64,000 nucleotides of DNA from Candidatus Moraniibacteriota bacterium (GCA_027008775.1 JALVDV010000003.1:12340-76339), one strand, 5' to 3'. Positions 1-46,535 are shown, counted from the stretch's first letter. The notes: generated by a model not told the origin, from the letters alone. Numbers and translations are program-made.

Positions 1-1773
1 ATGGCCACTCTCTACCGAAAATATCGCCCCCGGACTTTCAGCGAGATCAGCGGACAAGAATACGTTCTGCAAACCTTGACCAACGCCATCAGAAACAATC
101 GCTTCGGCCACGCCTACTTATTCACCGGCCCCCGCGGAACCGGTAAAACCACCACCGCCAGAATATTTGCTAAAACAATCAACTGTTTAAAACCGCTTAC
201 CAAAACCAAAAAATCCCACATTAAAATAGAACCTTGCAACAAGTGTAAAAATTGCCAGATAGTCAACAAAAACCAAGCTATTGACATCATAGAAATAGAT
301 GCCGCCTCTCACACCGGCGTGGATAACATCCGCCAGCTTAAAGAAGCTATTGATACTCCACCTTCCCATCTGCGCTACAAAGTCTATATTATAGACGAAG
401 TGCACATGCTTTCCCTGGGCGCCTTCAACGCCTTGTTAAAAACACTGGAGGAACCGCCCCAACACACTATTTTCATCTTGGCTACCACCGAACTTCACAA
501 AGTTCCGGAAACAATAATTTCCCGCTGTCAACAGTTCAACATTAAACCCCTCACTAAAGAGGAGATCATTAAAAAACTGTCCTCTATCGCCAAAAAAGAA
601 AAAATTAAATTAGACAAGGAGGCCTTGAATTTAATCGCCACTGAAGCCAATGGCGGAATGCGCGACGCCGAATCACTTTTGGACCAACTCATTTCTTTAC
701 ACAATCGCCAGGAAATTAACGACGAAGATGTTCGCCACATTTTAGGATTATCTTCTCGTCAAAGTATTTTAAAACTAACGGAAAAAATTGCTGAGAAAGA
801 TCTAAAGAAAACTTTGGAAATTATCAATAATCTGGAATTCAGCGGAACCAATTTAAAATCATTCACTCAACAACTACTTAATTTTATGCACGACCTGCTT
901 CTTTTCAAAACTACCGGCGCTCAAAACGAAATTCTGCAAAAACAACTGACAGCCGAAGAAATAAACGACTTGGAAAAACTGGCTAAAAAATTCTCCCTGC
1001 CGGAGCTTCTAAAACTAACTGAGCTTATCCAGCAAAGTTTGGAACAAAGTAATTACAGTGAAATTCCTCAATTATCACTGGAAATGGCCGTTTTAAAATT
1101 TCAGCTAGTGTCAACTTCTTCCAAAAAAGAAGAAAACTCTTCCTCCGAACAAGACTCTAAAAAAAAAGTCCTTTCTCCGCAAAAGAAGAAAAACGAGAAA
1201 ATAACAAAAAACGAAATGGTTGAAGATAACCCGGTTCAACCCAAAAAAACACCCGGACCAAAAAGAAAAAGTTCCCAAGCGTCAACAGAAAAAGAGTCTA
1301 CTCAAACACCAGAAAGCGAATCAGACAAAACAATAAAATCAAATCAGTCAATCAGTATCAACCAGTTTCTGCAACAATGGAATACAATTTTAGATGAAGT
1401 AAACAAAGTCAACAGAAGTTTATTCGCCTTTCTTAGCGTCTCTATTCCTCAAAATATTCAAGATGGTTCTGTTTGGATTAAAACTAAGTTTTCCTTCCAT
1501 CAAGAACAACTTTCCAAACCGGAAAACAAATTGACAATAGAAAAGGTCTTTGCTAGAATACTGCGAGTGCCATTGAGGGTCAGATTTATTGTGGATGAAA
1601 CAAAAACAGAAGAAAAATCGCCAACAACAGAAACTATTCCGGAAACAGAAAAACCCTCAACAACCGAAAAGGAAACCGCGCCAGAAGATGACTCGCTCAA
1701 CAGCCAACAATCAGCAGAAGAAAATTTATTATACGAAGCTCTTCGTCAAGTTGGTGGTAGAATTGTGGAATAA
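1..1773 (+). CDS. dnaX: DNA polymerase III subunit gamma/tau
   Basis: N-terminus MATLYRKYRPRTFSEISGQ...FTGPRGTGKTTTARIFAKTINC is the AAA+ clamp-loader Walker A and sensor; 590 aa with a low-complexity K/E/S-rich linker. Confidence 0.95.
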   Translation: MATLYRKYRPRTFSEISGQEYVLQTLTNAIRNNRFGHAYLFTGPRGTGKTTTARIFAKTINCLKPLTKTKKSHIKIEPCNKCKNCQIVNKNQAIDIIEIDAASHTGVDNIRQLKEAIDTPPSHLRYKVYIIDEVHMLSLGAFNALLKTLEEPPQHTIFILATTELHKVPETIISRCQQFNIKPLTKEEIIKKLSSIAKKEKIKLDKEALNLIATEANGGMRDAESLLDQLISLHNRQEINDEDVRHILGLSSRQSILKLTEKIAEKDLKKTLEIINNLEFSGTNLKSFTQQLLNFMHDLLLFKTTGAQNEILQKQLTAEEINDLEKLAKKFSLPELLKLTELIQQSLEQSNYSEIPQLSLEMAVLKFQLVSTSSKKEENSSSEQDSKKKVLSPQKKKNEKITKNEMVEDNPVQPKKTPGPKRKSSQASTEKESTQTPESESDKTIKSNQSISINQFLQQWNTILDEVNKVNRSLFAFLSVSIPQNIQDGSVWIKTKFSFHQEQLSKPENKLTIEKVFARILRVPLRVRFIVDETKTEEKSPTTETIPETEKPSTTEKETAPEDDSLNSQQSAEENLLYEALRQVGGRIVE

Positions 1774-1789
1774 GAAAACATAAGAATAT

Positions 1790-1861
1790 TGCCCGGTCGC
1801 CAAGTGGTAAGGCACATGGTTTTGGTCCATGCATTCGGGGGTTCGAATCCCTCCCGGGCAA
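1790..1861 (+). tRNA. tRNA-Gln (anticodon TTG)
   Basis: Cloverleaf read by eye: acceptor TGCCCGG/CCGGGCA, D-arm TCGCCAAGTGGTAAGGCA (close to E. coli tRNA-Gln), anticodon stem CATGG/CCATG with loop TTTTGGT, T-arm GGGGGTTCGAATCCCTC. Confidence 0.85.
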
Positions 1862-1935
1862 CAACAGAAAACAAGAGTCGGGAAATCAACCAAAATCAAA
1901 ATTTAATAGAAAACCCGCAAAAAAGCAAAAACAAA

Positions 1936-3102
1936 ATGCATTCAAATCAATTCAACTATCTCAAAATTCCCCACGCTTTTCATATATTCAGAAAAGGGAT
2001 TTATTCTTTGTATATTGCTCACGCTATCAGAGGATTTGTCGCCTCTTTAATAGGCTTTTTCATTCCTATTTATTTTTACAAAATCGGTTTAAACATTCCG
2101 GAAATTCTGCTTTATTATATTATTACTTATTTTTTCATCATCCTCTTCTCCATTGTCGTTGGCGGTATTGGCAATAAAGTTGGCCTCAAACACACTATGA
2201 TTATTAGCCTGCCTCTCTACCTACTCTACCTCGGCGGAATTATGCTCCTAAAAAAATATCCCTCCCCAACCTTCCTCTACAGCCTAGCTATTTTCGGCGC
2301 TTTCATTTCCGCCCTTTATTGGGTTCCTCTACATTGCCTTTTTGTCCGCCTCTCCTCTAACAAAAATCAGGATAAACAAAAACAAGTCGGGCTACTGTTC
2401 TCCGTCCGCAGTCTGGGTAGTATGATTGCGCCTCTCCTCGGCGGTTTAATATCCATTCTCTTTGGCTTTGAAGCTCTTTTCGCCACTGCTATCTTTATCT
2501 TAATTATTCCCATCATCATTCTCTTGAACTCCAAAGATATCCATCCCCATATCAATTTTTCCAGTGCCGATCTTTGGCTCTTTTTCCGTAAACACACTCG
2601 TCTTTTTATCATTATCCTCCTAGACGCTTTCGCCACTTTTGCTGACGATATTATTTGGCCATTGCTGGTCTTTCTCATCCTCCGCGATACAGTCAGTGTC
2701 GGCGTGGTTGGTAGTCTTATCGGCGTTGGCACAATTGTCTTCACTCTGATTATCGGTAAAATCATCGCCAAAAATGATTGGCAAAGAATTATCAAAGTAT
2801 CCGCCTTTATGTTGGCTTTTCTTTGGATTGTTAAAGCCTTTTTTGCCAATGAAAAAATCTCCATTTACACCATTTCCTTGGTGGCAGCCATGTTTGCTTT
2901 AATGTTTTCCGTCCCCCTTTCCAGTAAAACTTATTCTCTGGCAAAACGGAATAAAAACTTGGATGAGTTTATTGTCTTCCGCCAAATGGTCGTCTACCTC
3001 GGTAGACTGATGGCGGTTTTCTTTGCTATAATCTTGGTATCACAACTCAATATCTCTCTCTTACTAAGTGGAGTCGCCTACTTCATCATCAGCCTTTTCT
3101 AG
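1936..3102 (+). CDS. polytopic membrane protein, MFS-type transporter-like
   Basis: ORF 1789..3102 overlaps the tRNA at its 5' end; the first plausible start is internal Met (MHSNQF) at 1936; about 10-12 hydrophobic helices; start uncertain. Confidence 0.6.
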   Translation: MHSNQFNYLKIPHAFHIFRKGIYSLYIAHAIRGFVASLIGFFIPIYFYKIGLNIPEILLYYIITYFFIILFSIVVGGIGNKVGLKHTMIISLPLYLLYLGGIMLLKKYPSPTFLYSLAIFGAFISALYWVPLHCLFVRLSSNKNQDKQKQVGLLFSVRSLGSMIAPLLGGLISILFGFEALFATAIFILIIPIIILLNSKDIHPHINFSSADLWLFFRKHTRLFIIILLDAFATFADDIIWPLLVFLILRDTVSVGVVGSLIGVGTIVFTLIIGKIIAKNDWQRIIKVSAFMLAFLWIVKAFFANEKISIYTISLVAAMFALMFSVPLSSKTYSLAKRNKNLDEFIVFRQMVVYLGRLMAVFFAIILVSQLNISLLLSGVAYFIISLF

Positions 3103-3118
3103 AACAAATTCAACAACA

Positions 3119-4678
3119 ATGAAAAAGACCTCTCCTTCACCACACCGAACTAAAATCGTTTGGACGGGATTTTTTATTAGATTAGCCGTCCTTTTTCTTA
3201 TCGCGGTTCTTTTTTATTTGGGCAATTTCGTTTTCAATCTAAATAAAAATATCGCCCGCATAACCACCAATCAACAAGAATCATCAACCAAAGACCAAGC
3301 TTTCACCGAATTGAAAACATTTCAGGAAATTGTTAAATCATCTTCCGATGAAACCAAATTAAAACAACAAAATAATCGTATAAACATCCTTCTCCTTGGC
3401 GTTGGCGGACAAGGACACAAAGGCGCTTACCTCACCGACACCATCACCCTCCTTTCCATAAACACCCAAACCTATCAAACAGCTATGCTATCCATTCCGC
3501 GAGATCTTTATGTTCAAATTCCCGGCACCAACTATCACACCAAAATAAACGCTCTTTACACCTACGGCCTGAAAAACCAAAACAAATCTCCCGGCGAGGC
3601 CATCTCCCTCATCAAAAAAAGCGTGGAAAAAATCACCGGACAAAAAATAAATTATTACATTGTTCTTGATTTTGAGGGCTTCAAAGAAATAATCAAAACT
3701 CTGGGCGGAATTGACTTGGAAGTCCCCACCGACATTGTTGATAACCGTTACCCCGGACCGAATTATTCTTATGAAACCTTTAAAATATCAAAAGGCTTTC
3801 ACCATCTGGATGCGGAAACGGCTCTCAAATACGCTCGCGTTCGTCACGTGGCTGGCGGAGACTTTGGACGCGCCCAACGTCAACAACAAATAATCGCCAG
3901 TGTCAAGAAAAAAGCGACCTCTCTAAAAATATTGTTTAATCCCTTAAAAATCAATTCCATTCTCAACAGCCTGGGCGAGCACCTGCGCACAAACATTAAA
4001 CCTTCGGAAATAGCGCCCTTTATTAAACTGGCCAAAAACATCAACATCTACCAAACTAACACCAAAGTCCTTGATGCCTGGAGTAAGGATTCCCTACTTA
4101 AATCCGACCACGTTCAACTGGGAGGAGTTTGGGCTTACATTTTGCTCCCCAAAGACAAATCTTACCACTCCATCCAAGCGCTAGCCGAAAATATTTTCAA
4201 TCTTAAAAATTTACAGGAGAAAAAAGAGAATATTCGCCAAGAGCAAGCTAACATAGAAATTCTTACTCCCGACTATAATTCCTACATTCATTTCAAAAAA
4301 ATATTTCAAAACTGGGGCTATCGCATCCAACCTTATCGCCCTCAAAAATACACTCAAATTTGCCCCCTCAACCAAGAAATTCTTCTGGCTCCTCGCCAAA
4401 CCAATAAACTATTTACCATTGACGATTTAGTTGCTAAACTTGATTTAAAGGTAATTTACTACACCGAAGAAGAAAGGAAAGAAAAGAACAAAAATGAAGC
4501 AAGTGAAAAACCATCTTCCACAACCGGAAAAACCGGAGAAAACAATAAAACTGACATCACTATTTGTCTGCTAAAAGACAGCTATCGCTATTTTGAGAAT
4601 CAAAGCCGAAACAAAAACTCAAAAGTTGAAGAAAATTCAATTTTAAATACTCAAGGAGAAGTGCTTATCAATAAATAA
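3119..4678 (+). CDS. LytR-CpsA-Psr (LCP) family cell-envelope phosphotransferase
   Basis: N-terminal TM helix then INILLLGVGGQGHKGAYLTDTITLLSINTQTYQTAMLSIPRDLYVQIPG...TKINALYTYG, the typical LCP catalytic domain; start taken at MKKTSP. Confidence 0.85.
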   Translation: MKKTSPSPHRTKIVWTGFFIRLAVLFLIAVLFYLGNFVFNLNKNIARITTNQQESSTKDQAFTELKTFQEIVKSSSDETKLKQQNNRINILLLGVGGQGHKGAYLTDTITLLSINTQTYQTAMLSIPRDLYVQIPGTNYHTKINALYTYGLKNQNKSPGEAISLIKKSVEKITGQKINYYIVLDFEGFKEIIKTLGGIDLEVPTDIVDNRYPGPNYSYETFKISKGFHHLDAETALKYARVRHVAGGDFGRAQRQQQIIASVKKKATSLKILFNPLKINSILNSLGEHLRTNIKPSEIAPFIKLAKNINIYQTNTKVLDAWSKDSLLKSDHVQLGGVWAYILLPKDKSYHSIQALAENIFNLKNLQEKKENIRQEQANIEILTPDYNSYIHFKKIFQNWGYRIQPYRPQKYTQICPLNQEILLAPRQTNKLFTIDDLVAKLDLKVIYYTEEERKEKNKNEASEKPSSTTGKTGENNKTDITICLLKDSYRYFENQSRNKNSKVEENSILNTQGEVLINK

Positions 4679-4685
4679 ATATTTT

Positions 4686-5324
4686 ATGTCTGAAGAAAAA
4701 AATTATTTGGTCGTCGGTCTGGGAAATCCGGGCCCGGAATACGCTTACACCAGACACAACATTGGCTTCCGGATTCTGGAAAATTGGCTGTTTAACTTGA
4801 ATTTGACCGACAACTCTCCAATTGACAAACTGAAGTTTAATCAGAAACACCAGGCTAAATTAGGCATTATCAAATTGAATAATCGCAAAATCATCGCAGC
4901 TGAACCTCAAACTTTTATGAACAATTCCGGCTCTGCCGTCGCCTCCCTACAAAAATATTATCGGATTCCTCTGGAAAACATTTTGGTCATCCAAGATGAA
5001 TTGGATCTACCCCTGGGACAAGTCAGAATTTCTCGCTCCTCCGGACCGGCCGGCCACAACGGCCTAAAATCAATCATCCAACAATTGGGCAGTAACGATT
5101 TTTCTCGCCTCCGCCTGGGTATTGCCCCAAAGGAAAAACAAAAAATCAAACAAAAAGATTTTGTCCTAAACAAGTTTTCTCCTACCGAAGAAAAAATTAT
5201 TGATCAAATTCTGCCTCTCTCTAATGAAATTATAACCTATTTCATCAAACATGGCTTCTCCGCCACCGCCAATAAATTCAACAATCCCGATAGCCTTGCA
5301 AGAAACAAAAGTCTAGAAAAATAA
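4686..5324 (+). CDS. pth: peptidyl-tRNA hydrolase
   Basis: LVVGLGNPGPEYAYTRHNIGF...GHNGLKS signature motifs. Confidence 0.95.
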   Translation: MSEEKNYLVVGLGNPGPEYAYTRHNIGFRILENWLFNLNLTDNSPIDKLKFNQKHQAKLGIIKLNNRKIIAAEPQTFMNNSGSAVASLQKYYRIPLENILVIQDELDLPLGQVRISRSSGPAGHNGLKSIIQQLGSNDFSRLRLGIAPKEKQKIKQKDFVLNKFSPTEEKIIDQILPLSNEIITYFIKHGFSATANKFNNPDSLARNKSLEK

Positions 5325-5583
5325 AAAGCGCTGTACCACCCATGGCACCTAGCAAGACATAGGAGGGAAAAGTCTTACTAAATAATCCACGGGCAGTACA
5401 GCACTTTCTGGTAATTTTAAAAAACCGCAAGTCATCTGCACAACAACCATCGCTCCAACAATCGGATAAAGCATTATAACAAAATCTCAAAAAAAGTCAA
5501 GAGCAATCAAAGAAAAAAGGGGATGATGCGCTGACCATCCCCCATAAATTTTTGCCACTCTCCCGGGAAACCACCGGGATAAA

Positions 5584-5604
5584 CCGGACCGGACCCTGGT
5601 CCGG
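5584..5604. terminator. weak hairpin between convergent pth and the 5611..6015 gene
   Basis: CCGGACC-N7-GGTCCGG followed by GGATTTTC on + and TTTAT on the minus strand. Confidence 0.35.
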
Positions 5605-5610
5605 GGATTT

Positions 5611-6015
5611 TCAAGGGTTACAACGGCGTCTCAACAACTCTCTTAAGTGATCAGAGAGTTGTACATTCTTTCCCTTAACAATAACGGGGAAAGAACAAAC
5701 CTTGTATTTTTCATCGGGCAACTTGTAAATCACCCAGTTGCCACAATGAAAAAGAAACTCCGAATACACTCCACCCCCCCAATCCAAAAAAGCCGGGGGA
5801 TAAGCCTTTTTAGAAAAAGGTTGGCTTGGAGGGATGTAAATCTTTAAAAAATTTCCCTCCACATCAGCAAAAATCTCCTCCCTGTTATCGTTATTCACCA
5901 TCACTACTTCTCCCTGTTTTCTAAAGCATAAAAACAGGGAATCAATGAACAAGCAAATGAACGGTGACAGTAAGAATAAAAAAATTACCAAAAAACCAAT
6001 CACAAATCTCCTCAT
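5611..6015 (-). CDS. hypothetical membrane-anchored protein
   Basis: 134-aa ORF with N-terminal hydrophobic helix; strong RBS GAGGAGGG 8 nt upstream of ATG on the minus strand. Confidence 0.6.
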   Translation of the reverse strand: MRRFVIGFLVIFLFLLSPFICLFIDSLFLCFRKQGEVVMVNNDNREEIFADVEGNFLKIYIPPSQPFSKKAYPPAFLDWGGGVYSEFLFHCGNWVIYKLPDEKYKVCSFPVIVKGKNVQLSDHLRELLRRRCNP

Positions 6016-6243
6016 TTTTTTACCCTCCTCTTTTTTGGTATATTTTTAATATTTTAATGTACTTTAATACTTTGAAGAACTTACAAATGGTATACCAGCA
6101 AAAACAATTTTAATCAAGAGTCACTTCTGCCGAACTCCGAATGAAAACATTGCTTGCCAATTTTCAGACTAAAACATTATTGATCAAAAACCAATCCGCG
6201 CCACAGAAATCAAGTCCACTAATACACACAATTAATTAACCAA

Positions 6244-6740
6244 ACTCTTACATCAGCAACTCTACTGCGTTTTGCACCGAATAACTCACTTCATATCAAC
6301 AACTTCATTTATTTCACATCAAAAACCCCTTTCCACATCAAGAACTCTGACTTCATCTTGAAAACCATACTTTATACCGGAAACCTTATATTCTAATCAA
6401 AAAATCTCGTGCCAGAAACCATGTTTTACGACAGAGACACCAAAAGGGTTTATACCAAAGACTACATTTATACCGGAAATTTACATCAGAAACTACGTCT
6501 TATAAGAAAGATTGTAACCCACATTAAAAATTACATTTACATCGAAAACCTCACTTTTACATCACCAATTCCGTTACTTTACACATTAGAATATTTGCTT
6601 CACGTCAAAAACTCTATTCTATGTCAGAAACTCTATATTTTTACGCCTGACACTCTGCATTTTACACCAGAAAAATTTTACACCAAAAATCACATTTCAC
6701 ACCAGCAGTCCCACCTCAAAAAGAATCAAAAACCACACCT
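6244..6740. repeat. array of about 25 degenerate 19-20-bp tandem repeats (consensus approx TTTTACAYCAGAAACTCTA)
   Basis: Read directly: units such as tttcacatcaaaaacccct / ttccacatcaagaactctgac / tttataccggaaaccttata / tttacatcgaaaacctcac / ttttacaccagaaaaatt recur head-to-tail; the period is not a multiple of 3. Confidence 0.7.
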
Positions 6741-7010
6741 ACTATCATATAAGGTTGTATGATAGTATTTCACAAATCCGTTTAAAAAAGCCAAAAATCA
6801 AAAGTCAAAAAGCCAAAAAGTCATAATCACTCTTATATAAGGTTGTATGATAGTATTTTGCAAATCCGTTCAAAAAACATCAAAAAACAAAAGAACAAAA
6901 AACCATAACCACTATCATATAAGGTTATATGATAGTGTTTCACAAATCCACTCAAAAAAATAAAAAATAAAAAAGCGCATCTACTATCATATAAGGTTGT
7001 ATGATAGTAC
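6741..7010. repeat. four tandem 72-90-bp units, each with the inverted repeat ACTATCATA-N8-TATGATAGT followed by TTTCACAAATCC and an A-rich linker
   Basis: Palindromes at 6741-6766, 6829-6854 (2 mismatches in left arm), 6911-6936 (1 mismatch), 6983-7008. Confidence 0.8.
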
Positions 7011-7225
7011 TTCATAAAAAACCAATTTATTCAGCTTGTTTGCGGTTTTTTGATCTATTTTACCTATTCCTATCCATTGACCGCGCTGCCTCAATCATAA
7101 TGTAGCTCGCAAATACAAGTAAAAAGTATTATCACTTTCTCTTTTAAGAACAAATTTCAAAAACAAAAATACACTCACCCATCATCATTCAAAATTAGAA
7201 AACAGGAAACAAAAACGATCTATTT

Positions 7226-7260
7226 CAAACAAAAAAACCCGATAACGCCAACATGTTATC
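7226..7260 (-). terminator. rho-independent terminator after the DUF167 gene
   Basis: Minus-strand GATAAC-N8-GTTATC hairpin followed by GGGTTTTTTTGTTTG. Confidence 0.55.
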
Positions 7261-7356
7261 AGATTAACCGGCGCAATTACACGATAAAGGCGAAGAAATA
7301 TTCATCAAGACAGTAATCGGGCGGTGTCTCACCAAAATCGGCAAGAAATACAACTC

Positions 7357-7602
7357 CTAATTTTTATCAACCAACACATCAACAATTTTAATTCTGGCTG
7401 TTTGCCCAACCAGAATTCGCACGTTTGACTTGGAAACTCCGAAATACTCAGCCAAGAGTTTAATCAAGGCCTTGTTTGCCTTTCCCTTTTCTGGCGTCGC
7501 CGTCAACCAAACTTTATACTCATTCTCGGTAATCTTTTTAACCTGATTTTTTCCGGCTTTAGGTGTCACTTTTACATAAATTCTCTTCTGCTCCATTGTC
7601 AT
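7357..7602 (-). CDS. DUF167 (YggU-like) family protein
   Basis: 81 aa; KIYVKVTPKAGKNQV...KGKANKALIKLLAEYFGVSKSNVRILVGQTAR matches the YggU/UPF0235 family. Confidence 0.75.
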   Translation of the reverse strand: MTMEQKRIYVKVTPKAGKNQVKKITENEYKVWLTATPEKGKANKALIKLLAEYFGVSKSNVRILVGQTARIKIVDVLVDKN

Positions 7603-7641
7603 TTTAGCTTAGTTTTCCCGATACGGAAAACTCTTTCAGCT

Positions 7642-8253
7642 CTATTCAAATAATTCCGCCAAAGCGATTTTGCATCTTTTTTCATCCGGTCTATTCAGCC
7701 TACGTCTAACTCTCGTTAATTTATGAGGATGTTTTTTAAGATAATAGCGCAACCTTTCCCTATCTCGCAAATCAAAACGACCCCCAATCAACTTACGGAA
7801 AACATTTTTTCTTTGAGCAAAGTTATAAACAATCTCCGGCAGGTCGCTCAGATCAAAATCATTACCCACTTCAATTCTATTTTTATCTTCATTAAACCGA
7901 GGTTCCATATCCCTTCTATACTTTTTAAGTTTTAATTTGGCCAAACGCTTTTTTAAAATTTCCTGACTAGCCTTCTCTAAATTACCACCCTCCGAATCAC
8001 TTTTCTCTTGCCTATATTGCCCTGCCTTAAACAACGCATCCAGCGGAGCTATCCCTTTCTTGCCTCGCTCTTGTTCCTCCCAGCCCGACATACTCTTTAT
8101 AGCTTCATTTTTTTTGCTGTATTGCCCTGTTCCCAGTAGCGCATCTAGCGGAGCTATCTTTTTTTTAGGTTTTGTGCTGCCACCCCTGTCTTCCAGAACT
8201 CTAGGCCCCTCCCCCTCTTTTTTCTTGCCAAATAAAATTTCAAATAATCCCAT
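7642..8253 (-). CDS. hypothetical basic protein with duplicated IAPLDAL..GQY motif
   Basis: 203 aa; internal repeat KKKIAPLDALLGTGQYSKK / KKGIAPLDALFKAGQYRQE; no recognisable catalytic motif. Confidence 0.55.
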   Translation of the reverse strand: MGLFEILFGKKKEGEGPRVLEDRGGSTKPKKKIAPLDALLGTGQYSKKNEAIKSMSGWEEQERGKKGIAPLDALFKAGQYRQEKSDSEGGNLEKASQEILKKRLAKLKLKKYRRDMEPRFNEDKNRIEVGNDFDLSDLPEIVYNFAQRKNVFRKLIGGRFDLRDRERLRYYLKKHPHKLTRVRRRLNRPDEKRCKIALAELFE

Positions 8254-8371
8254 TTTAGAAAAAATAAATTATTACTTTGCAAACTTACTATAATCCATTT
8301 TAACTCATTTTAAAATAAGCAGATAAGAGCTCCGGAACACGCGAAAGCTCTCAACCCATTGTTTCACTAAA

Positions 8372-9106
8372 TCACTTTCTCCCCAACAACTCTCCAATTG
8401 TTGTTTTCCTCAGACTGCTTTTCTCCCGCGATCTTTTTACCGAACTAGAGTGCAAATCAACATTTGCTTTTCGCAAACGAGTGCCCCCCTGACGAAAGAC
8501 ACTCTTAATTGCCGCTCTTTCTCTGGCTGAGATACTTCTCAGACCCGATTTCTTTCGTCCAACTCGACTACGCTCCATCGCCTTTATAATCTCCTTGGGC
8601 AAATTAAACCTATCCAGCTCAATTCCTTCTCCCAAGAGAAATACATTCTTTCTGCTGTTGTACTTTATTTCATCCGGTTGCAAACGACTACTAACTTTTA
8701 AACCGACATCCCAAAATGCGTCAGGTAAAACAGTCTTTCTTCCCACACTTTTACCGGACAACATTCCTCTGTCAGAGTTTATTTGAGGCTCCTTCCTGCG
8801 TCTATCCCCAACGAAAAGACGGTCAAGCATTTTATCCAGAGCGCCACCCCTTCTCTTTTCAACCTTTTTCTCGCCGGCCTTCTCCGCCCAAGACTTTCTT
8901 TGCCAAAAGTTAGTCCCGGGATCATTCATTGTTCCCCCAACCGAATGATTCCCGCTATCAGACATTCCTTTCGCCTGAGGTGTAAATCTGTTGGCGCGAC
9001 CGGCGCCAAACTTACTTCTCGAAGAAGGAGCAGAAGAGAAAGCGGGTTTAATCACCCTCCTAAAACTACCACCCAATCCGCCACCGGAGAAATTTCTTCG
9101 CAACAT
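8372..9106 (-). CDS. hypothetical Arg/Ser/Gly-rich basic protein
   Basis: 244 aa, low complexity, probably disordered; in an apparent operon with flanking minus-strand genes. Confidence 0.5.
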   Translation of the reverse strand: MLRRNFSGGGLGGSFRRVIKPAFSSAPSSRSKFGAGRANRFTPQAKGMSDSGNHSVGGTMNDPGTNFWQRKSWAEKAGEKKVEKRRGGALDKMLDRLFVGDRRRKEPQINSDRGMLSGKSVGRKTVLPDAFWDVGLKVSSRLQPDEIKYNSRKNVFLLGEGIELDRFNLPKEIIKAMERSRVGRKKSGLRSISARERAAIKSVFRQGGTRLRKANVDLHSSSVKRSREKSSLRKTTIGELLGRK

Positions 9107-9119
9107 AAAAATAATGCTT

Positions 9120-9808
9120 TTAATGAATTAAAACTTCTCTCACTTTGCCGACAAAAAAACTTTTCAATTTTTCTAAATCGATACTCTTACCAGCAATTTC
9201 TTTTCTCAACTTCGGATCTAAAATTTTTCCCTGATCCTGAAAGGCCTGCAAAACATAACGACGAGACCCGGATAACCAATCGGCTATCTCTTTAAATTCC
9301 TCTTCACTGTGCAAACCGGAAACTACCGTTGTCCTAAATTCATAATCGTCAGCCAAATCCCTAATCAGTTCAACGCTTTTTTTAATTTTTTCCAAGTTAG
9401 CTTCTACTCCGCAAACCCGGGCATAATTTTCCGGACTAGCCTTAATATCCATCGCCACATAATCCACCAATCTACTTTTCAACAACTTCCGCAACACTCC
9501 TGGTCGTGTCCCATTGGAATCCAATTTCACCGCAAAACCCAATCCCTTAACTTTTTTAATAAACTCAACCAAATTCGGTTGCAAAGTTGGCTCTCCACCG
9601 GTAATACAAATTCCATCCAACTTTCCTCTTCTCATTTCCAAAAATTCAAAAAATTCATCCATCCGTTTCTCAACTTGCTCATTACCGTGAACAGTGAAGT
9701 GTGAACTGTGAACCAATTCCGGGTTATGACAAAAAGGACAACGAAAGTTGCAACCGGGAGTAAATACGGTTGCCGCCACTTTGCCTGGATAATCTATCAA
9801 AGTCATCT
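9120..9808 (-). CDS. radical SAM glycyl-radical-enzyme activase (NrdG/PflA-like, anaerobic RNR activase type)
   Basis: MTLIDYPGKVAATVFTPGCNFRCPFCHNPELV is the CxxxCxxC radical SAM cluster motif of the NrdG-type family; start set at the internal Met after the ftsK stop; the longer ORF 9120..10052 overlaps ftsK. Confidence 0.8.
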
Positions 9809-14358: not shown

Positions 14359-14477
14359 AATTATTTAAGAAATTTATTCCTTCTAAAAACTTAACAAACA
14401 AATACAAATAAGCGCATAACTCCACACAAACGAACAATCTTACTTCCTCAAATACAACGCAAACATACAATGATCAA

Positions 14478-14570
14478 ACAATAGAGCAATAAAGCAATGG
14501 AATAATGGAGCAATAGAGCAATGAAACAATAAAACAATACAACAACATAATAATACAATTAACACAACAC
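14478..14570. repeat. degenerate ~9-bp tandem repeat (AGCAATRRA)n
   Basis: caatagagcaataaagcaatggaataatggagcaatagagcaatgaaacaataaaacaatac read directly. Confidence 0.5.
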
Positions 14571-14614: not shown

Positions 14615-14642
14615 TACTACCATATTACGTAATATGGTAGTA
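14615..14642. promoter_or_regulatory. 28-bp perfect palindrome TACTACCATATTACGTAATATGGTAGTA (putative operator, copy A)
   Basis: Self-reverse-complementary; identical to the copy at 46397-46424 and one mismatch from the copy at 45858-45885; lies between divergent genes. Confidence 0.6.
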
Positions 14643-22489: not shown

Positions 22490-22543
22490 CACGAATCTAC
22501 AAATATTGTATTCGTAAATTCGTGGTTTATTTGTAGATTCGTG
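22490..22543. promoter_or_regulatory. 16-bp inverted repeat CACGAATCTACAAATA...TATTTGTAGATTCGTG just upstream of polA
   Basis: Read directly; an extra ATTCGT copy lies in the spacer. Confidence 0.4.
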
Positions 22544-22761
22544 GTAATAATTACTTCTACTTTTAGATAATATTGTGGATTACAGACTTTCAACATTTTG
22601 CCTTTAGCTCTCTTATACTATCACAAACCACCAAAATCCGCACTAAAATTTAACAGTCCATCCGGAAAAACCTAAAATTAAAACATCAAGACAGAGTTCT
22701 TTTCACAAAAAATTTTTCAACCTCGCCTCGGAAGAGAAAACCGAGGCGGAAAGGAGAAATC

Positions 22762-22917
22762 GGTGAAAAAAAAGAAAATAAAGAAGAAAAGAAAAAACAA
22801 AAAAACAAAAGCCTCCGCTCATTCTTGCAATCTCTGCAACAAGCCACTGCAACCGGGGCAATATTCTCCCTGTCCCAAGTGCAGGAACACCGCCGTATAT
22901 GCCTGCCGCTGGAAATA
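22762..22917 (+). CDS. small basic C4 zinc-ribbon protein (51 aa), unannotated
   Basis: GTG start 7 nt after AAGGAG; translation MKKKKIKKKRKNKKTKASAHSCNLCNKPLQPGQYSPCPKCRNTAVYACRWK has CxxC-N13-CxxC; followed by a terminator; absent from the ORF track only because it is under 60 aa. Confidence 0.55.
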
Positions 22918-22931
22918 AGTTTACAAACAAA

Positions 22932-22965
22932 CCCCGGCCAAAGCATCAAGCTGACCGGGGTTTTC
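22932..22965 (+). terminator. rho-independent terminator after the small zinc-ribbon ORF
   Basis: CCCCGG-N17-CCGGGG followed by TTTTCAC. Confidence 0.5.
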
Positions 22966-23060
22966 ACAAAATGGCAATTATATAGATGCCCCCGCCCTTA
23001 CAGGCGGGGAATTCCCGCTGATTTAAACATCAAATCGCAAACTACACCCCACCCGTCTTC

Positions 23061-23160
23061 TTCGCGCCATCATTATCTCACGACCGTGTCATTATGAACA
23101 GCATACTATATGCGCTATTTTTCTGCGCTTCATCATCTCGCGGTCGTGTTATTATGAACA
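23061..23160. repeat. two ~38-bp imperfect direct repeats ending in ATTATGAACA
   Basis: gcgccatcattatctcacgaccgtgtcattatgaaca vs gcgcttcatcatctcgcggtcgtgttattatgaaca; the internal 10-mer is inverted between copies (CACGACCGTG vs CGCGGTCGTG). Confidence 0.5.
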
Positions 23161-23339
23161 AATTCCAAAAACCCGCATCCATCAAACGCAAACCAATACC
23201 GATTTGACAAACAAGCCCAAAAAGCTTAAAGCTAAATTGATAATTTTTTATTTGGGTTATTTTATTGTTTTCCATTCAAGGTATTCTCGTACTTTTGTTT
23301 TTAAAAAAATTTTTACTTTTGATAAAGAAATGTTTTGCT

Positions 23340-23660
23340 GGTGTTTAAAGATAATTTCTTCTTCAACAACATCAGCAAAATAAGCCAAGCTTTTTAAAGC
23401 CTACTATCTTTTGGTTTAACCCCATAAACCAATAACCAAAGGTTTATGGATTTTTTGCTCCAGTCTGATTTAACAAAATTTTTAATTGCTTCTTTAATTT
23501 CTTTTTTAGAATAATTTTCCCTTAACCAATCAATCGCCTATTCAGTGCCAAAATCAAGAATGTTCTTAATAATAATTTGCTTGTCTTTTTCTTTGTCCAT
23601 CGTTTCTAAATCATAAGACCACAAAAACAGCTCCAAAATACAGGTAGCTTCCTATTTTTT
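23340..23660 (-). pseudogene. possible frame-disrupted gene remnant
   Basis: Minus-strand conceptual translation gives ...MDKEKDKQIIIKNILDFGTE*AIDWLRENYSKKEIKEAIKNFVKSDWSKKSINLWLLVYGVKPKDSRL* with an in-frame TAG; no intact ORF. Confidence 0.25.
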
Positions 23661-23834
23661 CTTACCACTTTGATTGTTTCTTTTGTACTCCAACATACAG
23701 TTATTGTAGTATTTTTCAGACCATTTTCAACTCTTGCCCCAAAAAGTTTGCTAGAGAAAAAAGAATATTTTATACTGAAGAACAATGCTTAAAGGCTTTG
23801 GCAAATTTTAAGTTTCAAATTAAAATTATTTCTT

Positions 23835-42678: not shown

Positions 42679-43236
42679 TCATTTTCCACTAATTTTGGCC
42701 ATCATTTCATTAATCTGCCGATAAGTCTCCTCTAACTCACCACCATTGTCAATCACAAAATCGGCGTATTGTTTCAACAAAGGCACATCTTTGTCCGCCG
42801 GTCGCTGATGATCTTTTTTAAATTCTGCAAAAGTCTTGGAATTGTCATCTGTTTTTTCTCCCCGCTTAATCAATCTCTCATAAGATACCTCCAATGGCGC
42901 TTCCACAAACACAAAAATAAAATCATCTATTTTATTTTTAAAATAATCCAATTCCGCCTTTTTTCTAATACCATCAAAAACAACCAATTCCGCTTCTTTT
43001 TTTTGAATGTCTTGCTCCAAAACTCTGGACAAAATATCCTTACCGAAAGCATTACGCAAAGCCTCAGCTAATCCGGCTAAATTTTGCCGCTCATTAGGCA
43101 AATAAAGCCTGTCTAAAACATCCTTTAAAATATTAGTATAAGCCACCGCTTCCGCCCCGTATTTCTCAATCAAATATCTTGTGATTGTTCCTTTGCCGGC
43201 GCCAATATTTCCGGCGATTCCAATTACTTTTTTCAT
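42679..43236 (-). CDS. P-loop nucleotide kinase, phage-T4-type dNMP-kinase-like (paralogue 1)
   Basis: GIAGNIGAGKGT Walker A; C-terminal ADFVIDNGGELEETYRQI resembles the T4 gp1 C-terminus (ITNDGSLEEL); paralogous to 49758..50351. Confidence 0.55.
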   Translation of the reverse strand: MKKVIGIAGNIGAGKGTITRYLIEKYGAEAVAYTNILKDVLDRLYLPNERQNLAGLAEALRNAFGKDILSRVLEQDIQKKEAELVVFDGIRKKAELDYFKNKIDDFIFVFVEAPLEVSYERLIKRGEKTDDNSKTFAEFKKDHQRPADKDVPLLKQYADFVIDNGGELEETYRQINEMMAKISGK

Positions 43237-43592
43237 TGTTTTAATTTTAGCTATCTAGTTATTAACCAAACGAAAGAAAATTAAAAATCAATTTTTATCC
43301 TTTTCTCGCGACATCCACCTTTTTGCCACTTCTACTACACCCTAACAATAGTTTTCTCTCTGTCAACTTTTGCCCTGCTCTCCCGACAACTTATTTTATT
43401 ATTTTCATTGAAAAAGCACAAACATACACTCTCCTCTGTTTATTGATTCGCCAGACAGTAAAAAAACCAGCTTTCACAGTCTTACAAAATTAAATCCTTG
43501 CCAACAATATAAACATGCAACAAATGCTAATTACAATACGTTGTCAGCTCCTACAAAAACATCAATCCCTCAAATTAACTTATCTTTTAAAG

Positions 43593-44261
43593 CTATTCCT
43601 CACCGGCAATCTCCTTTTCCAATCGCTCTAAAAATTCTTTAAAAAACGCTAGCCTTTTTCTGGCCATTTCCCTGGCTTTCTCAGTATACAATCTATCAAC
43701 CACAAATTTCAATTTTGTTTCAAACTCTATTTGCGGACTGTGTTTTGTTTTATCCTTGATTCTTCCCTTGAGCTTCCCTCCCAAATTTTCCTCAGCATAC
43801 TTTTCAATGTCAACGTCACTGTAAATTTTGGCCTTATTTTTCCCCACCCAAACAAAACTTCTCGCCACTCCTATCGCCCCCAGGGCATCCAGTTTGTCCG
43901 CATCAAATAAAATTTGCGCTTCCCTGCTCTTTGCTCTGCAACCTGTCCTGTACCGATGAGAAACTATACATTCTTGAACATGCCTTACCTGCTTTTCTGA
44001 AAAATCCAATTTCCGCAAAATGGGTCCCGCCATTTTCGCTCCCAAGACCGCATGATCGGTTTTTCCGGAAGAATCTTTATCCTCTTTAACTCTGGCAATA
44101 TCGTGCAGTAAAGCCGCCGCCCGCAACACGTCTTTATCAATATCGTCGCCTTTCGCCAATCGCAAAGCCAAATTATAAACTCGCAACACGTGCTCCATAT
44201 CGTGCGCTGAACAGGAAAGCTCTTTGGCCACAATTTCTTTGATTTTTTGAAACCTAGACAT
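43593..44261 (-). CDS. HD-domain phosphohydrolase
   Basis: H...HD motif (LLHDIARVKE) and downstream His/Asp residues. Confidence 0.8.
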   Translation of the reverse strand: MSRFQKIKEIVAKELSCSAHDMEHVLRVYNLALRLAKGDDIDKDVLRAAALLHDIARVKEDKDSSGKTDHAVLGAKMAGPILRKLDFSEKQVRHVQECIVSHRYRTGCRAKSREAQILFDADKLDALGAIGVARSFVWVGKNKAKIYSDVDIEKYAEENLGGKLKGRIKDKTKHSPQIEFETKLKFVVDRLYTEKAREMARKRLAFFKEFLERLEKEIAGEE

Positions 44262-45237
44262 TCAAATTCTTTTTAATTATCGTATCCAAAAAATCGCTCA
44301 ATTTCCACCCGGCCGCTCGCAACTCTTGCGGATATAAAGATGTCTCCGTCATACCGGGCAAAGTATTTACTTCCAGCACGTATAAACCCTTTTCCTCGTT
44401 AAAGATAAAATCTGTCCGGGAATAATCAGCCAAACCCAATACCTTGTGAACTCGCGCAGCTGTCCGTTGAATTTCCTTGGCCAAGTTTTCATCCTCAATC
44501 ACCGCCGGACAAATCTCCTCCACCGCATTTTCATACTTGGCTTCAAAGTCAAAAAATTCCTTTTGAGGAATAATCTCCACAATCGGCAACGGCTCAATTT
44601 GACCGGCTTTTTGTTCCAAAACACCACAAGTGAATTCCTTTCCCTCAATATACTCTTCCACCAAAGCCTCATTGCCAATCTCAAAAATCTCTCGCAAAGC
44701 TTGAGCCAATTCCTCAGCCGAGTCGCAAATAAAAACACCAAAGGAAGATCCGGACTCACTAGCTTTGGCCACCACTTTTTTCCCCTGAAATTTTTCCACA
44801 ATATTCACCGCTTCCTCATTCAAATTTCCAATCTTAGACCTTTCCAAAGACAAAAACGGTGGCGTTTTAATACCGCTTTTTTCAAACACCCATTTGCTGG
44901 CAATCTTAGAAAAAGATAATTGCGAAGATTTTGCCGAAGAGCCAACAAAATTAATCCTCTCTTTTTCTAAGACACTTTGCACCTGACCATCCTCTCCGTA
45001 AGAACCATGCAAAACCGAAAAAACTATGTCAACCCTGCCCTTTAAATCCCGCGGAATAATTTCTTTTCCTTCCAAAAACCACCGACCATCCTTGGCAACA
45101 AAAATGTCCACAATTTCATACTTACCCGAGTCCAAATTATTCTTGATTGTCTTGCCGGAATTCAAAGAAACATCATGTTCCAAAGAAACACCTCCACTCA
45201 ACACCCCCACTCTTATTTTCTTTGATTCATTTGCCAT
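44254..45237 (-). CDS. ddl: D-alanine--D-alanine ligase
   Basis: KIRVGVLSGGVSLEHDVSLNSGK, ATP-grasp fold, C-terminal LEVNTLPGMTETSLYP. Confidence 0.9.
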   Translation of the reverse strand: MANESKKIRVGVLSGGVSLEHDVSLNSGKTIKNNLDSGKYEIVDIFVAKDGRWFLEGKEIIPRDLKGRVDIVFSVLHGSYGEDGQVQSVLEKERINFVGSSAKSSQLSFSKIASKWVFEKSGIKTPPFLSLERSKIGNLNEEAVNIVEKFQGKKVVAKASESGSSFGVFICDSAEELAQALREIFEIGNEALVEEYIEGKEFTCGVLEQKAGQIEPLPIVEIIPQKEFFDFEAKYENAVEEICPAVIEDENLAKEIQRTAARVHKVLGLADYSRTDFIFNEEKGLYVLEVNTLPGMTETSLYPQELRAAGWKLSDFLDTIIKKNLNV

Positions 45238-45292
45238 ACTTCTGAATTTATCGCAAAATTAAAACTCTCAACGCCTCTTCTAAAGAAAACAA

Positions 45293-45622
45293 TTATCGAT
45301 CATCTCCATCTCCATTAATAACCCCTCTTTCTAAACGACTGTATAATTTTTCAATATTTTTTTGTGCTATTTCATCCAAATTTAAGCCAAGTTCCGTAGC
45401 TAACTGAGAAAGATACCACAGCACATCACCCAATTCTTTCTGCACACTCTCCCTAAAACCATCGTCAATAATTCCATCTTTATCTCTAATTAGTTTTTTA
45501 ATTTTTTCCGCTACCTCACCCGCCTCTCCAACTAAACCCAGAGTCGGATAAATAAAATTATTGTCTTTATTCGGATACAGGGCTGTCTTCCTTGACTTTT
45601 CTTGATACTCTTGAAAATTCAT
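45293..45622 (-). CDS. MazG-like nucleoside triphosphate pyrophosphohydrolase
   Basis: LGLVGEAGEVAEKIKK...ELGDVLWYLSQLA, the EExxE/D metal-binding helix pair; start at MNFQEY (the ORF extends upstream to 45769). Confidence 0.7.
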   Translation of the reverse strand: MNFQEYQEKSRKTALYPNKDNNFIYPTLGLVGEAGEVAEKIKKLIRDKDGIIDDGFRESVQKELGDVLWYLSQLATELGLNLDEIAQKNIEKLYSRLERGVINGDGDDR

Positions 45623-45857
45623 AAACAAATTTTTAATTCTTAATCTATAAAACACAATAGAAGGCATAACAATAAGAAGAATATCAGGCAAACCAACATT
45701 TTGTATCAAGCTTCTTTCAAAACTCCAAATCTGGTAGAAACAATAATTTTCCTCAATAATTCTCCTCAATATCAGCTTTCACACAAACACAAAATCCCAC
45801 CAAACTAAACCTCCACATCAACATCACCAAACATTTTCCCAACTCCCAACCATCACT

Positions 45858-45885
45858 TACTACCATATTACGTAATATAGTAGTA
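45858..45885. promoter_or_regulatory. 28-bp palindrome TACTACCATATTACGTAATATAGTAGTA (copy B, one mismatch)
   Basis: Between the TrpR-like gene (downstream side) and the MazG-like gene (upstream side). Confidence 0.6.
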
Positions 45886-45945
45886 AAAACAACGGCAGGG
45901 AAAACAACGACAGTGGCGCTGGTCAATTATCACAATAACAACATA

Positions 45946-46383
45946 CTACAACGATAATAAATCTTTCAAAAATCTGTATTGAGGATAACGATCTAACAAA
46001 CCTTCATTGTATCTGACACTGCTTCCTTTTCGGCCACCTTTCTCCTTCGGCCATCTTTTTATCATTACTTTTTTATAAGCTTCATCTCTTTCGTGTAACC
46101 ATCTATCCACTTTTGAAATAGTTCCGAATCCAACACCAATTTTCTGTCTGATATCATCAAAAGTATCTCCATCAATGATACACTTGGCTATTTGCAGTCT
46201 TCTCGCCAACATAAGTGATTCGCTGGGAGTCAGGAGACCGACAAATAAATCAATTATTTCCTGTTTGGTTCTCAAATTGGAAATTAAACCAAAGAAATCA
46301 CCGATAATTTTACGTCTTTTTTCTATGGGTATATTTTTTGGTTTTACCTTAGCCATATATTTTTGATACTTTTTATGTTCCAA
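45946..46383 (-). CDS. TrpR-like DNA-binding protein, YerC/YecD family
   Basis: LLTPSESLMLARRLQIAKCIIDGDTFDDIRQKIGVGFGTISKVDRWL parallels B. subtilis YerC SLAQRLQVAKMIKQGYTYATIEQESGASTATISRVKRSL (helix-turn-helix of the Trp repressor fold). Confidence 0.8.
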   Translation of the reverse strand: MEHKKYQKYMAKVKPKNIPIEKRRKIIGDFFGLISNLRTKQEIIDLFVGLLTPSESLMLARRLQIAKCIIDGDTFDDIRQKIGVGFGTISKVDRWLHERDEAYKKVMIKRWPKEKGGRKGSSVRYNEGLLDRYPQYRFLKDLLSL

Positions 46384-46396
46384 ATTACTCCTATAA

Positions 46397-46424
46397 TACT
46401 ACCATATTACGTAATATGGTAGTA
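46397..46424. promoter_or_regulatory. 28-bp perfect palindrome TACTACCATATTACGTAATATGGTAGTA (copy C) 14 bp upstream of the TrpR-like start codon
   Basis: Overlaps a TATAAT hexamer (46392-46397); position fits an autoregulatory operator. Confidence 0.65.
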
Positions 46425-46460: not shown

Positions 46461-46535
46461 AATTTCTGAAAACTTTTGAAAATTTCTAAAAACTTTTGAG
46501 AACTTTTGAAAACTTTTTAAAACTTTTTAAATAAT
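46461..46535. repeat. ~13-bp tandem repeat (GAAAACTTTTGAA)n
   Basis: tctgaaaacttttgaaaatttctaaaaacttttgagaacttttgaaaactttttaaaactttttaaa read directly. Confidence 0.5.

Follow-up and report, generated by a model that had tools for sequence, protein, structure and literature searches.

The window, by which we mean the whole 64,000-nucleotide stretch analysed here (Candidatus Moraniibacteriota bacterium, GCA_027008775.1 JALVDV010000003.1:12340-76339), contains at 6016-7356 a spacer of 1341 bp without credible ORFs. It is flanked by a gene for a 134-aa protein (5611-6015, minus strand) and a DUF167 gene (7357-7602, minus strand), and the neighbours of the array are pth, the gene for this 134-aa protein (of unknown function), DUF167 and a radical SAM enzyme. 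ORFs spanning the tandem array described below (60 aa on the minus strand, 117 aa on the plus strand) were judged spurious. The features of the spacer are as follows:

6016-6120, minus strand: promoter and 5' UTR of the 134-aa gene, without a difference from those of the sister species (100% identity; protein 77%)
6121-7226, unstranded: lineage-specific block of ~1.09 kb, made up of the 14-nt motif cluster, the array of dyads and unique sequence (~220 bp)
6178-6690, plus strand: cluster immediately preceding the array, in which the 14-nt motif TTTACAYCRRAAAC is present 18 times on the same strand, mostly at intervals of 19-24 bp
6719-7032, plus strand: tandem array with units of 88, 82, 72 and 72 bp, each with a linker rich in A, a dyad of 26-28 bp and a flank of the TTYRCAAATCC type
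6741-6766, plus strand: unit 1 dyad, ACTATCATA-TAAGGTTG-TATGATAGT, with T...A extension; single-stranded DNA hairpin of -5.7 kcal/mol
6829-6854, plus strand: unit 2 dyad, ACTCTTATA-TAAGGTTG-TATGATAGT, with degenerate left arm (2 mismatches); 0 kcal/mol, i.e., no single-stranded DNA hairpin
6911-6936, plus strand: unit 3 dyad, ACTATCATA-TAAGGTTA-TATGATAGT, centre ending in A; hairpin of -8.7 kcal/mol
6983-7008, plus strand: unit 4 dyad, same sequence as the unit 1 dyad, with T...A extension
6747-6770 and 6835-6858, plus strand: 24-bp direct repeat ATATAAGGTTGTATGATAGTATTT, common to units 1 and 2, at the end points of a deletion
7236-7265, minus strand: canonical intrinsic terminator of the DUF167 operon, kept in the sister species; on the minus strand the array lies downstream of it

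The array and the repeat block around it

The array consists of four head-to-tail units that start at about 6719, 6807, 6889 and 6961, with start-to-start distances of 88, 82 and 72 bp according to TRF and a repeat finder, values that correct the spacing of about 89, 81 and 72 bp given in the initial annotation. Its architecture is one of tandem direct repeats, each holding an inverted repeat: the unit dyads, of the form ACTATCATA-N8-TATGATAGT, start at 6741, 6829, 6911 and 6983, with a deviating left arm in unit 2. The four tandem units first annotated thus stand, but not the identity of their dyads, since the left arm of unit 2 and the centre of unit 3 differ. Similarly, the flank TTTCACAAATCC, once placed after every palindrome, is found exactly after units 1 and 3 only, with TTTTGCAAATCC after unit 2 and CTTCATAAAAAACC after unit 4, and the T...A extension reported for unit 4 is borne by unit 1 too. 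As the spacings amount to 8.4, 7.8 and 6.9 helical turns, the dyads do not lie on one face of the helix, and their description as 'phased' has to be abandoned.

In the four-unit alignment, 23 of the 26 dyad columns are invariant, as against fewer than half (below 50%) in the flanks, and outside the dyad the units are 61-84% alike. This conservation of the dyad could stem from recent duplication, gene conversion or fast slippage of the A-tract linkers rather than from selection. The pattern ACTAYCATA-N8-TATGRTAGT has seven matches in the 64-kb window at up to three mismatches, compared with 0.03 expected from shuffles, and three of these lie beyond the array, at 14616, 45859 and 46398. Half-sites number 12 against an expectation of 0.31, with neither intermediate-quality sites nor lone half-sites in the window. 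The array centre TAAGGTTG is not self-complementary, in contrast to the centre TTACGTAA of a related 28-mer found elsewhere in the window, and the asymmetric centres of all four units (ending as in TAAGGTTG or in A) are on the plus strand, in the same orientation.

Immediately to the left, the cluster of TTTACAYCRRAAAC accounts for 18 of the 94 matches of this 14-nt motif in the window, all within 0.5 kb and on the plus strand, the remaining window being at background level. The TTYACA core of the motif recurs after each array dyad, which identifies the array as the right-hand part of a larger nested direct-repeat block. Nested duplications (repeat families D2-D5) mark this block, those of the cluster (D2, D3, D5) being ~286-309 bp apart. 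In layout the cluster (6178-6690) is iteron-like, with no rep gene nearby, and the sister species lacks it.

The array sits between the terminator (7265-7236) and the conserved promoter region (6016-6120), the latter ~700 bp away, and no gene starts within 700 bp of it. Against Rfam, only tRNAs reached the gathering threshold and nothing was found at E <= 1 in 5900-7450. Compared by BLAST with plasmids and phages, the spacer matched neither. GC skew in the window ranges from -0.43 to 0.00 without a switch, on which ground a replication origin or terminus at the array was rejected; the plus strand has a skew of about -0.1 to -0.4 regardless of gene orientation, and the window lies within one replichore. 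The window has a second ORF-poor stretch of ~1.3 kb at 22493-23834, which holds fragments resembling disrupted small genes and a duplicated segment of ~30 bp (around 23070-23100 and 23130-23160).

A palindrome family and its TrpR-like partner

The matches beyond the array lead to a gene of the TrpR family and to the following features:

45946-46383, minus strand: YerC/YecD-type TrpR-family gene (PF01371, 1.5e-14; TIGR02531; PDB 3frw (4e-10), 3kor, 3g1c)
46398-46423, unstranded: perfect palindrome ACTACCATA-TTACGTAA-TATGGTAGT, upstream of the TrpR-like gene
45859-45884, unstranded: one-mismatch copy of the palindrome, between the stop of the TrpR-like gene and the start of the MazG gene
14616-14641, unstranded: third palindrome, perfect, in the divergent spacer between an NTP_transferase gene (minus) and a Lactamase_B_3 gene (plus)

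The perfect 28-mer TACTACCATATTACGTAATATGGTAGTA occurs in the window at 14616 and 46398, and the TrpR-like gene, which judging from a conserved MAK... probably starts at 46356, is 39 kb from the array. The array dyads and the 28-mer at this gene are indeed members of one palindrome family, as the initial annotation implied, and the family as a whole is tied to YerC/YecD-type genes. Short tandem repeats lie within ~50-140 bp of both perfect palindromes (46467-46531 and 14476-14558), one of the type (TGAAAACTTT) x 6.5 and the other of an 8-bp CAATAGAG type; they may reflect A-tract bending, promoter upstream elements or coincidence.

Orthologs of the TrpR-like protein with 94% (L135-137), 74% (L138) and 66% (L139-141) identity all have palindromes on both sides of their genes, one 40-100 bp upstream and the second past the stop codon, ahead of the gene that follows (MazG or dUTPase). 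The arms of these palindromes change symmetrically and alike at both sites, to ACCACATT...AATGTGGT in L138 and TTTACCATA...TATGGTAAA in L139, and the centre TTACGTAA stays constant despite these changes. Further, across phyla, a C at arm position 5 goes with an aromatic or hydrophobic residue at the place aligned with Ile79 of E. coli TrpR, and a T with Glu, Asn or Pro, a covariation with one exception in 15 cases that is confounded by phylogeny. Because the links between site and gene run both ways, the arm changes are symmetric and the Ile79 position covaries with the arms, the C-type 28-mer is likely the operator of the YerC/YecD-type protein. The pair of palindromes at the TrpR-like gene would look like two operators for two consecutive promoters. 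The gene resides among those for a dCMP deaminase, a dNK-like kinase, ThyX or ThyA with DHFR, Tmk, and Dut or MazG (42679-46383 in the window; 6753-10900 in L138; 7658-10861 in L139), and this setting among thymidylate/dNTP-pool genes suggests that the protein may be a nucleotide-pool regulator rather than a regulator of Trp or His.

Beyond this lineage, a scan of one genome per species recovered the pattern, with the consensus YACTAYCATA-N8-TATGRTAGTR, at at least 118 loci, mostly of Patescibacteria, namely Saccharibacteria, Parcubacteria, Uhrbacteria, Moranbacteria, Peribacteria, Woesebacteria, Berkelbacteria and Doudnabacteria. At 17 of the 118 listed palindrome loci, which come from many CPR phyla, tblastn places a TrpR-like gene no more than ~100 bp away, in several cases with a site on each side; among the loci listed, this YerC/YecD-type gene is the family's only constant genomic partner. 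Apart from it, Pfam scans of 61 downstream and 79 upstream genes found no shared function near the dispersed sites, on the strength of which a coherent regulon was ruled out. The family has seven copies in the 64 kb of the window, including the array, and individual MAGs show at least 4-7. Neither these palindromes nor their association with YerC/YecD in CPR bacteria is described in the open-access papers that our literature searches covered, and the same goes for the array's arrangement, which the initial annotation had rightly not recognised as a described element.

The distribution of the dispersed sites, as far as crude gene calls allow it to be read, looks partly REP-like. They are extragenic imperfect palindromes of 20-40 bp, often 2-15 bp past a stop codon by the same crude calls, and 17 of the 71 classified lie in convergent spacers, a proportion equal to the chance expectation under those calls. 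Such convergent-spacer and post-stop placement, again with crude gene calls, is not predicted by a pure promoter-operator model. Copies within one genome have an identical centre, even when it is asymmetric, and in other genomes the flanks of the palindromes are often self-complementary in a manner that differs site by site. A role for the dispersed palindromes as intrinsic terminators was rejected, as only ~10% have at least six T in the next 10 nt. Tandem arrays were not found elsewhere when metagenomes at large were scanned for pairs of sites separated by 40-70 bp, the sole match being a site plus a half-site rather than an array; a dyad scan of viral contigs gave five matches, which have non-palindromic centres and are probably unrelated.

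Several further observations concern the family at large. Palindrome pairs also bracket genes other than regulators, such as TsaE in a Moraniibacteriota MAG (L012 7118-7752) and GreA in a Saccharibacteria MAG (L083 5710-6252). Longer, site-specific perfect inverted repeats of up to ~50 bp enclose the palindromes at L046 4389-4438, L002 5025-5068 and L107 2137-2188, which suggests that selection for a hairpin or cruciform acts there, or else a process that generates palindromes. CPR-type TrpR-like genes with palindromes are found too in MAGs labelled as Gammaproteobacteria or Bdellovibrionales (L036, L044, L072, L095 and L131; records CAZVIU01, CAZSTB01, CAZIWW01 and CAYORE01), where the taxonomic labels look wrong; CAYORE01 has the dnaX-MFS-LytR-pth synteny in common with the window, with a Pth that is 56% identical. 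As for resemblances to other motifs, the loop AAGGUU recalls the CsrA SELEX motif, but has no GGA; the outer CACTAT/ATAGTG recalls the halves of an NrdR box; and the dyad recalls LexA boxes, yet adjoins TrpR-like genes and not lexA.

The array sites themselves depart from the operator of their own lineage. The operator core CCATATTACGTAATATGG is kept in the window, L135, L138 and L139, and the array core TCATATAAGGTTGTATGA differs from it at 6 of 18 positions, two of them symmetric arm positions and four among the eight of the centre: the array has T-type arms with the centre TAAGGTTG, the lineage operator C-type arms with the centre TTACGTAA. The closest sequences outside its own genome are the T-type sites of Saccharibacteria and other CPR bacteria, with 29 of 31 bases in common between the array dyad and L112, a site that adjoins a TrpR-like gene. 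The local TrpR-like protein has Phe at the position aligned with Ile79, in accord with C-type arms. Sites of hybrid C/T type adjoin TrpR-like genes at L046 and L072, so arm position 5 is no absolute barrier. Given the T-type arms and the non-cognate, asymmetric centre, the local protein may plausibly bind the array, but probably less well than its own operator, and the initial proposal that the 'same' protein binds both is accordingly weakened to an uncertain one. A paralog may also exist elsewhere in the genome.

Strain variation and the history of the block

The locus was found in four assemblies that encode an identical Pth protein. As the initial annotation had thought possible, the number of units varies: there are four in L128 and L129 (the window's contig ERZ27262687; SRR8439053) and three in L127 and L130 (GCA_026992875.1; SRR14510437). 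The two alleles differ by an 88-bp deletion with its ends in the 24-bp direct repeat, which takes out the degenerate left arm of unit 2. Since units 1 and 2 are only 73% alike, the four-unit form is the older and the three-unit form is derived. Members of a same-allele pair are 0-1 substitutions apart and may be one population, so that at least two independent populations are represented. An assembly artefact, which had been raised at the outset, is contradicted by the recovery of each of the two alleles twice in the four assemblies, and a collapse or expansion is unlikely because the units are so dissimilar outside the dyad. The array thus has head-to-tail units in a strain-variable number, as a VNTR does.

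In the sister species (GCA_027038515.1, SRR18691003), the ortholog of the 134-aa protein is 77% identical, and the gene order matches: FtsK, radical SAM, two genes of unknown function, DUF167 and then a gene for a 136-aa protein. There the spacer has 254 bp as against 1341 bp, comprising the terminator, ~25 bp and the 105-bp promoter/5' UTR, with neither dyads nor 14-nt motifs. As this syntenic spacer is without it, the ~1.09-kb block (~6121-7226) is specific to the window's species. No terminal inverted repeats were seen and only a weak GTTT repeat is present at its ends, and a transposon-like insertion of the block was rejected. Ahead of the 134-aa gene, 105 bp of the window (6016-6120) match L142 (6896-7000) at 100% identity, the protein being 77% identical, which would reflect either strong constraint on the promoter/5' UTR or a recent recombination tract. 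In a more distant relative, synteny is lost beyond pth.

Between strains, divergence left of 7356 is 0-9 substitutions per kb and to the right 45-240 per kb, a jump that places the spacer beside a recombination boundary. Positions 1-9324 of the window are a mosaic when compared with L127: dnaX, MFS, pth, the 134-aa gene and the greater part of the spacer carry 0-4 substitutions per kb, LytR carries ~30 per kb, and the sequence beginning with DUF167 carries 45-240 per kb, which puts the breakpoint at ~7050-7357, beside the array.

Interpretation and comparison with known systems

We propose, with about even confidence, that a minisatellite multiplied a variant TrpR-like box and thereby supplied three to four extra candidate sites for a YerC/YecD-type protein. 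The array would be the youngest part of a nested-repeat minisatellite of ~1.1 kb, located in the spacer that separates the DUF167 operon's terminator from the next promoter. One of its repeat units would have captured, or grown around, the Patescibacteria-wide TrpR-like box, unequal crossing-over would have raised this box-bearing unit to four copies, and one copy would later have been deleted in some strains. Most likely the box is an operator in double-stranded DNA, read by a dimer of the YerC/YecD-type TrpR-family protein; in this lineage a site precedes the gene for that protein and another precedes the neighbouring MazG/dUTPase gene. To these the array would add three or four sites, 72-88 bp apart and probably of lower affinity, which could soak up some of the regulator, in the manner of the titration or sponge role first suggested, or block RNA polymerase reading through the spacer. 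Binding of protein to the array, and a decoy or roadblock effect, are possibilities that we infer from sequence comparison. The array is probably, therefore, a recent and dispensable cluster of extra predicted binding sites and not a conserved machine. Against an operator reading of the array, no regulatory target is evident for it, and the sister species manages without the block.

The strongest rival is that the array is neutral repeat DNA, a selfish or accidental minisatellite in which the dyads were amplified passively and have no effect on the cell. We consider this somewhat improbable, although much of what is seen is in accord with it: the sister species is without the block, one unit is missing from some strains, the metagenome-wide scan turned up no comparable arrays, the locus lies at a synteny break and beside a strain-mosaic breakpoint, a target gene is not evident, and the site variant is non-cognate. 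On the other side, 1.1 kb of non-coding DNA is unusual in compact Patescibacterial genomes, the dyads are far better conserved than the linkers, and their 18/18 match to the family arms is far beyond chance, such that any protein reading the motif should still be attracted. A more ambitious version of the binding-site proposal, which we hold to be rather unlikely, is that Patescibacteria possess an undescribed pair: a YerC/YecD-type protein whose gene lies among those for thymidylate and the dNTP pool, and a 26-28-bp palindrome that, as operator or roadblock, would control this gene and its MazG or dUTPase neighbour and would occupy many unrelated intergenic spacers besides, with the array as a strain-variable sink that tunes the regulator's free level or insulates two transcription units. 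Less probable again is a transcribed element, that is, a ncRNA or long leader whose four hairpins would bind protein, stabilise a 3' end or serve as tandem terminators. Folding surpasses that of shuffles on both strands (z = -6.4 and -4.4), a score that is, however, the trivial outcome of inverted repeats; T-rich runs follow each hairpin by 6-9 nt on the minus strand, a promoter-like TTTACT-18-TATGAT (7123-7094) is aimed into the array, and the flanks of palindromes elsewhere are often self-complementary and site-specific. Yet T-runs accompany only ~10% of the dispersed sites, the terminators of this genome are canonical and G+C-rich, with one just upstream of the array (7265-7236), and Rfam offers no match at E <= 1. 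Unit 2, moreover, has no hairpin potential (0 kcal/mol) yet keeps its centre and right arm intact, a retention that fits recognition of a double-stranded DNA half-site better than a hairpin role.

The REP-like traits of the dispersed sites raise the further prospect of mobile repetitive extragenic palindromes, with the array as an amplification of the BIME type. Extragenic placement, often just past stop codons and also in convergent spacers, identical centres within a genome, the lack of intermediate-quality sites or lone half-sites in the window, the bracketing of a gene by two copies and the strain-variable copy number all speak for it. We nevertheless think it quite unlikely, for the bracketed gene encodes a helix-turn-helix regulator rather than a RAYT/Y1 transposase and stays in one conserved neighbourhood in the lineage, the arms are conserved across phyla where REPs are species-specific, the array units have one orientation without alternation, and the observed copy number is low. 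Least credible of all, and rejected as very improbable, is a centromere-like partition site or an iteron-type replication origin, the former of which, along with nucleoid anchoring, figured in the initial annotation. It draws on the resemblance of tandem direct repeats with inverted repeats to sopC of plasmid F and on the iteron-like ~20-bp spacing of the neighbouring 14-nt repeats; opposed to it are the lack of par, rep or dnaA genes nearby, the uniformly negative GC skew without a switch, and the spacer's want of similarity to plasmids or phages. Any essential role, be it centromere, origin or nucleoid anchor, is disfavoured by the absence of the block from the syntenic sister species, the loss of a unit in some strains and the non-cognate variant.

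By itself, the array is only a minor curiosity, a cluster of protein-box dyads that is young, dispensable and variable in copy number. The more valuable lead is the pairing of regulator and palindrome across distant CPR phyla, since these bacteria have few regulators, almost none of them characterised, and a conserved regulator-operator pair would provide a useful handle on their gene control; its neighbourhood of ThyA/ThyX, Tmk, Dut, MazG and dNK suggests control of the nucleotide pool. The four-unit and three-unit strains, together with an array-free sister, amount to a natural experiment on regulator titration, and if the sink reading were true, a decoy locus might have been caught while arising.

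Among known systems, the palindrome family resembles the TrpR/HisR operators in presenting a dyad that is probably read by a small TrpR-fold helix-turn-helix dimer, in placing a site before the regulator's own gene, and in a consensus that drifts by lineage together with the protein; the ACTA/TAGT ends of the palindrome also recall the half-site GNACT of TrpR. The described TrpR/HisR operators (those of HisR, the YerC of Firmicutes, included) are of 18-20 bp, with the consensus sequences TGTACTnGTnnACnAGTACA and cacTTTA-N6-TAAAgtg (PMC9413887). The Patescibacterial box departs from these 18-20-bp motifs in its 26-28 bp and its other half-sites, and so does not share their architecture (PMC9413887). 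In CPR bacteria, the neighbours of the gene belong to thymidylate/dNTP metabolism and not to that of Trp or His, and the dispersed copies adjoin unrelated housekeeping genes. The array, for its part, does not adjoin a promoter as a TrpR/HisR operator would, and the sister species keeps terminator and promoter without it; the open-access papers searched describe no tandem array of TrpR/HisR-type operators away from a promoter.

The REP/BIME elements of enterobacteria and pseudomonads are extragenic palindromes that often lie past stop codons, form strain-variable tandem clusters and may flank a gene with two copies. The palindrome family is like them in size, placement, strain-variable cluster and an associated gene between two copies, and unlike them in having a regulator instead of RAYT, a sequence that crosses phyla, direct orientation and an apparently low copy number. 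Centromeres of the sopC type of plasmid F are tandem direct repeats of tens of bp with one inverted-repeat binding site each, a layout that the array repeats; it differs in being chromosomal, in having no partition operon nearby, in being missing from the sister species and in its unstable unit number. The datA locus of E. coli is a conserved titration locus of proven function. Like datA and other decoy arrays, the array is a cluster of sites, here candidate ones, away from regulated promoters that could lower the free amount of a DNA-binding protein, whereas its sites are non-cognate variants and its locus is not conserved. Bacterial VNTRs or minisatellites, finally, have head-to-tail units and nested duplications, and their copy number shifts through recombination between repeats. 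In its units, nested duplications, strain-level copy number and absence from the sister species, the array is alike, and what sets its unit apart from them is a dyad that belongs to a family-wide protein box and is much better conserved than the remainder of the unit.
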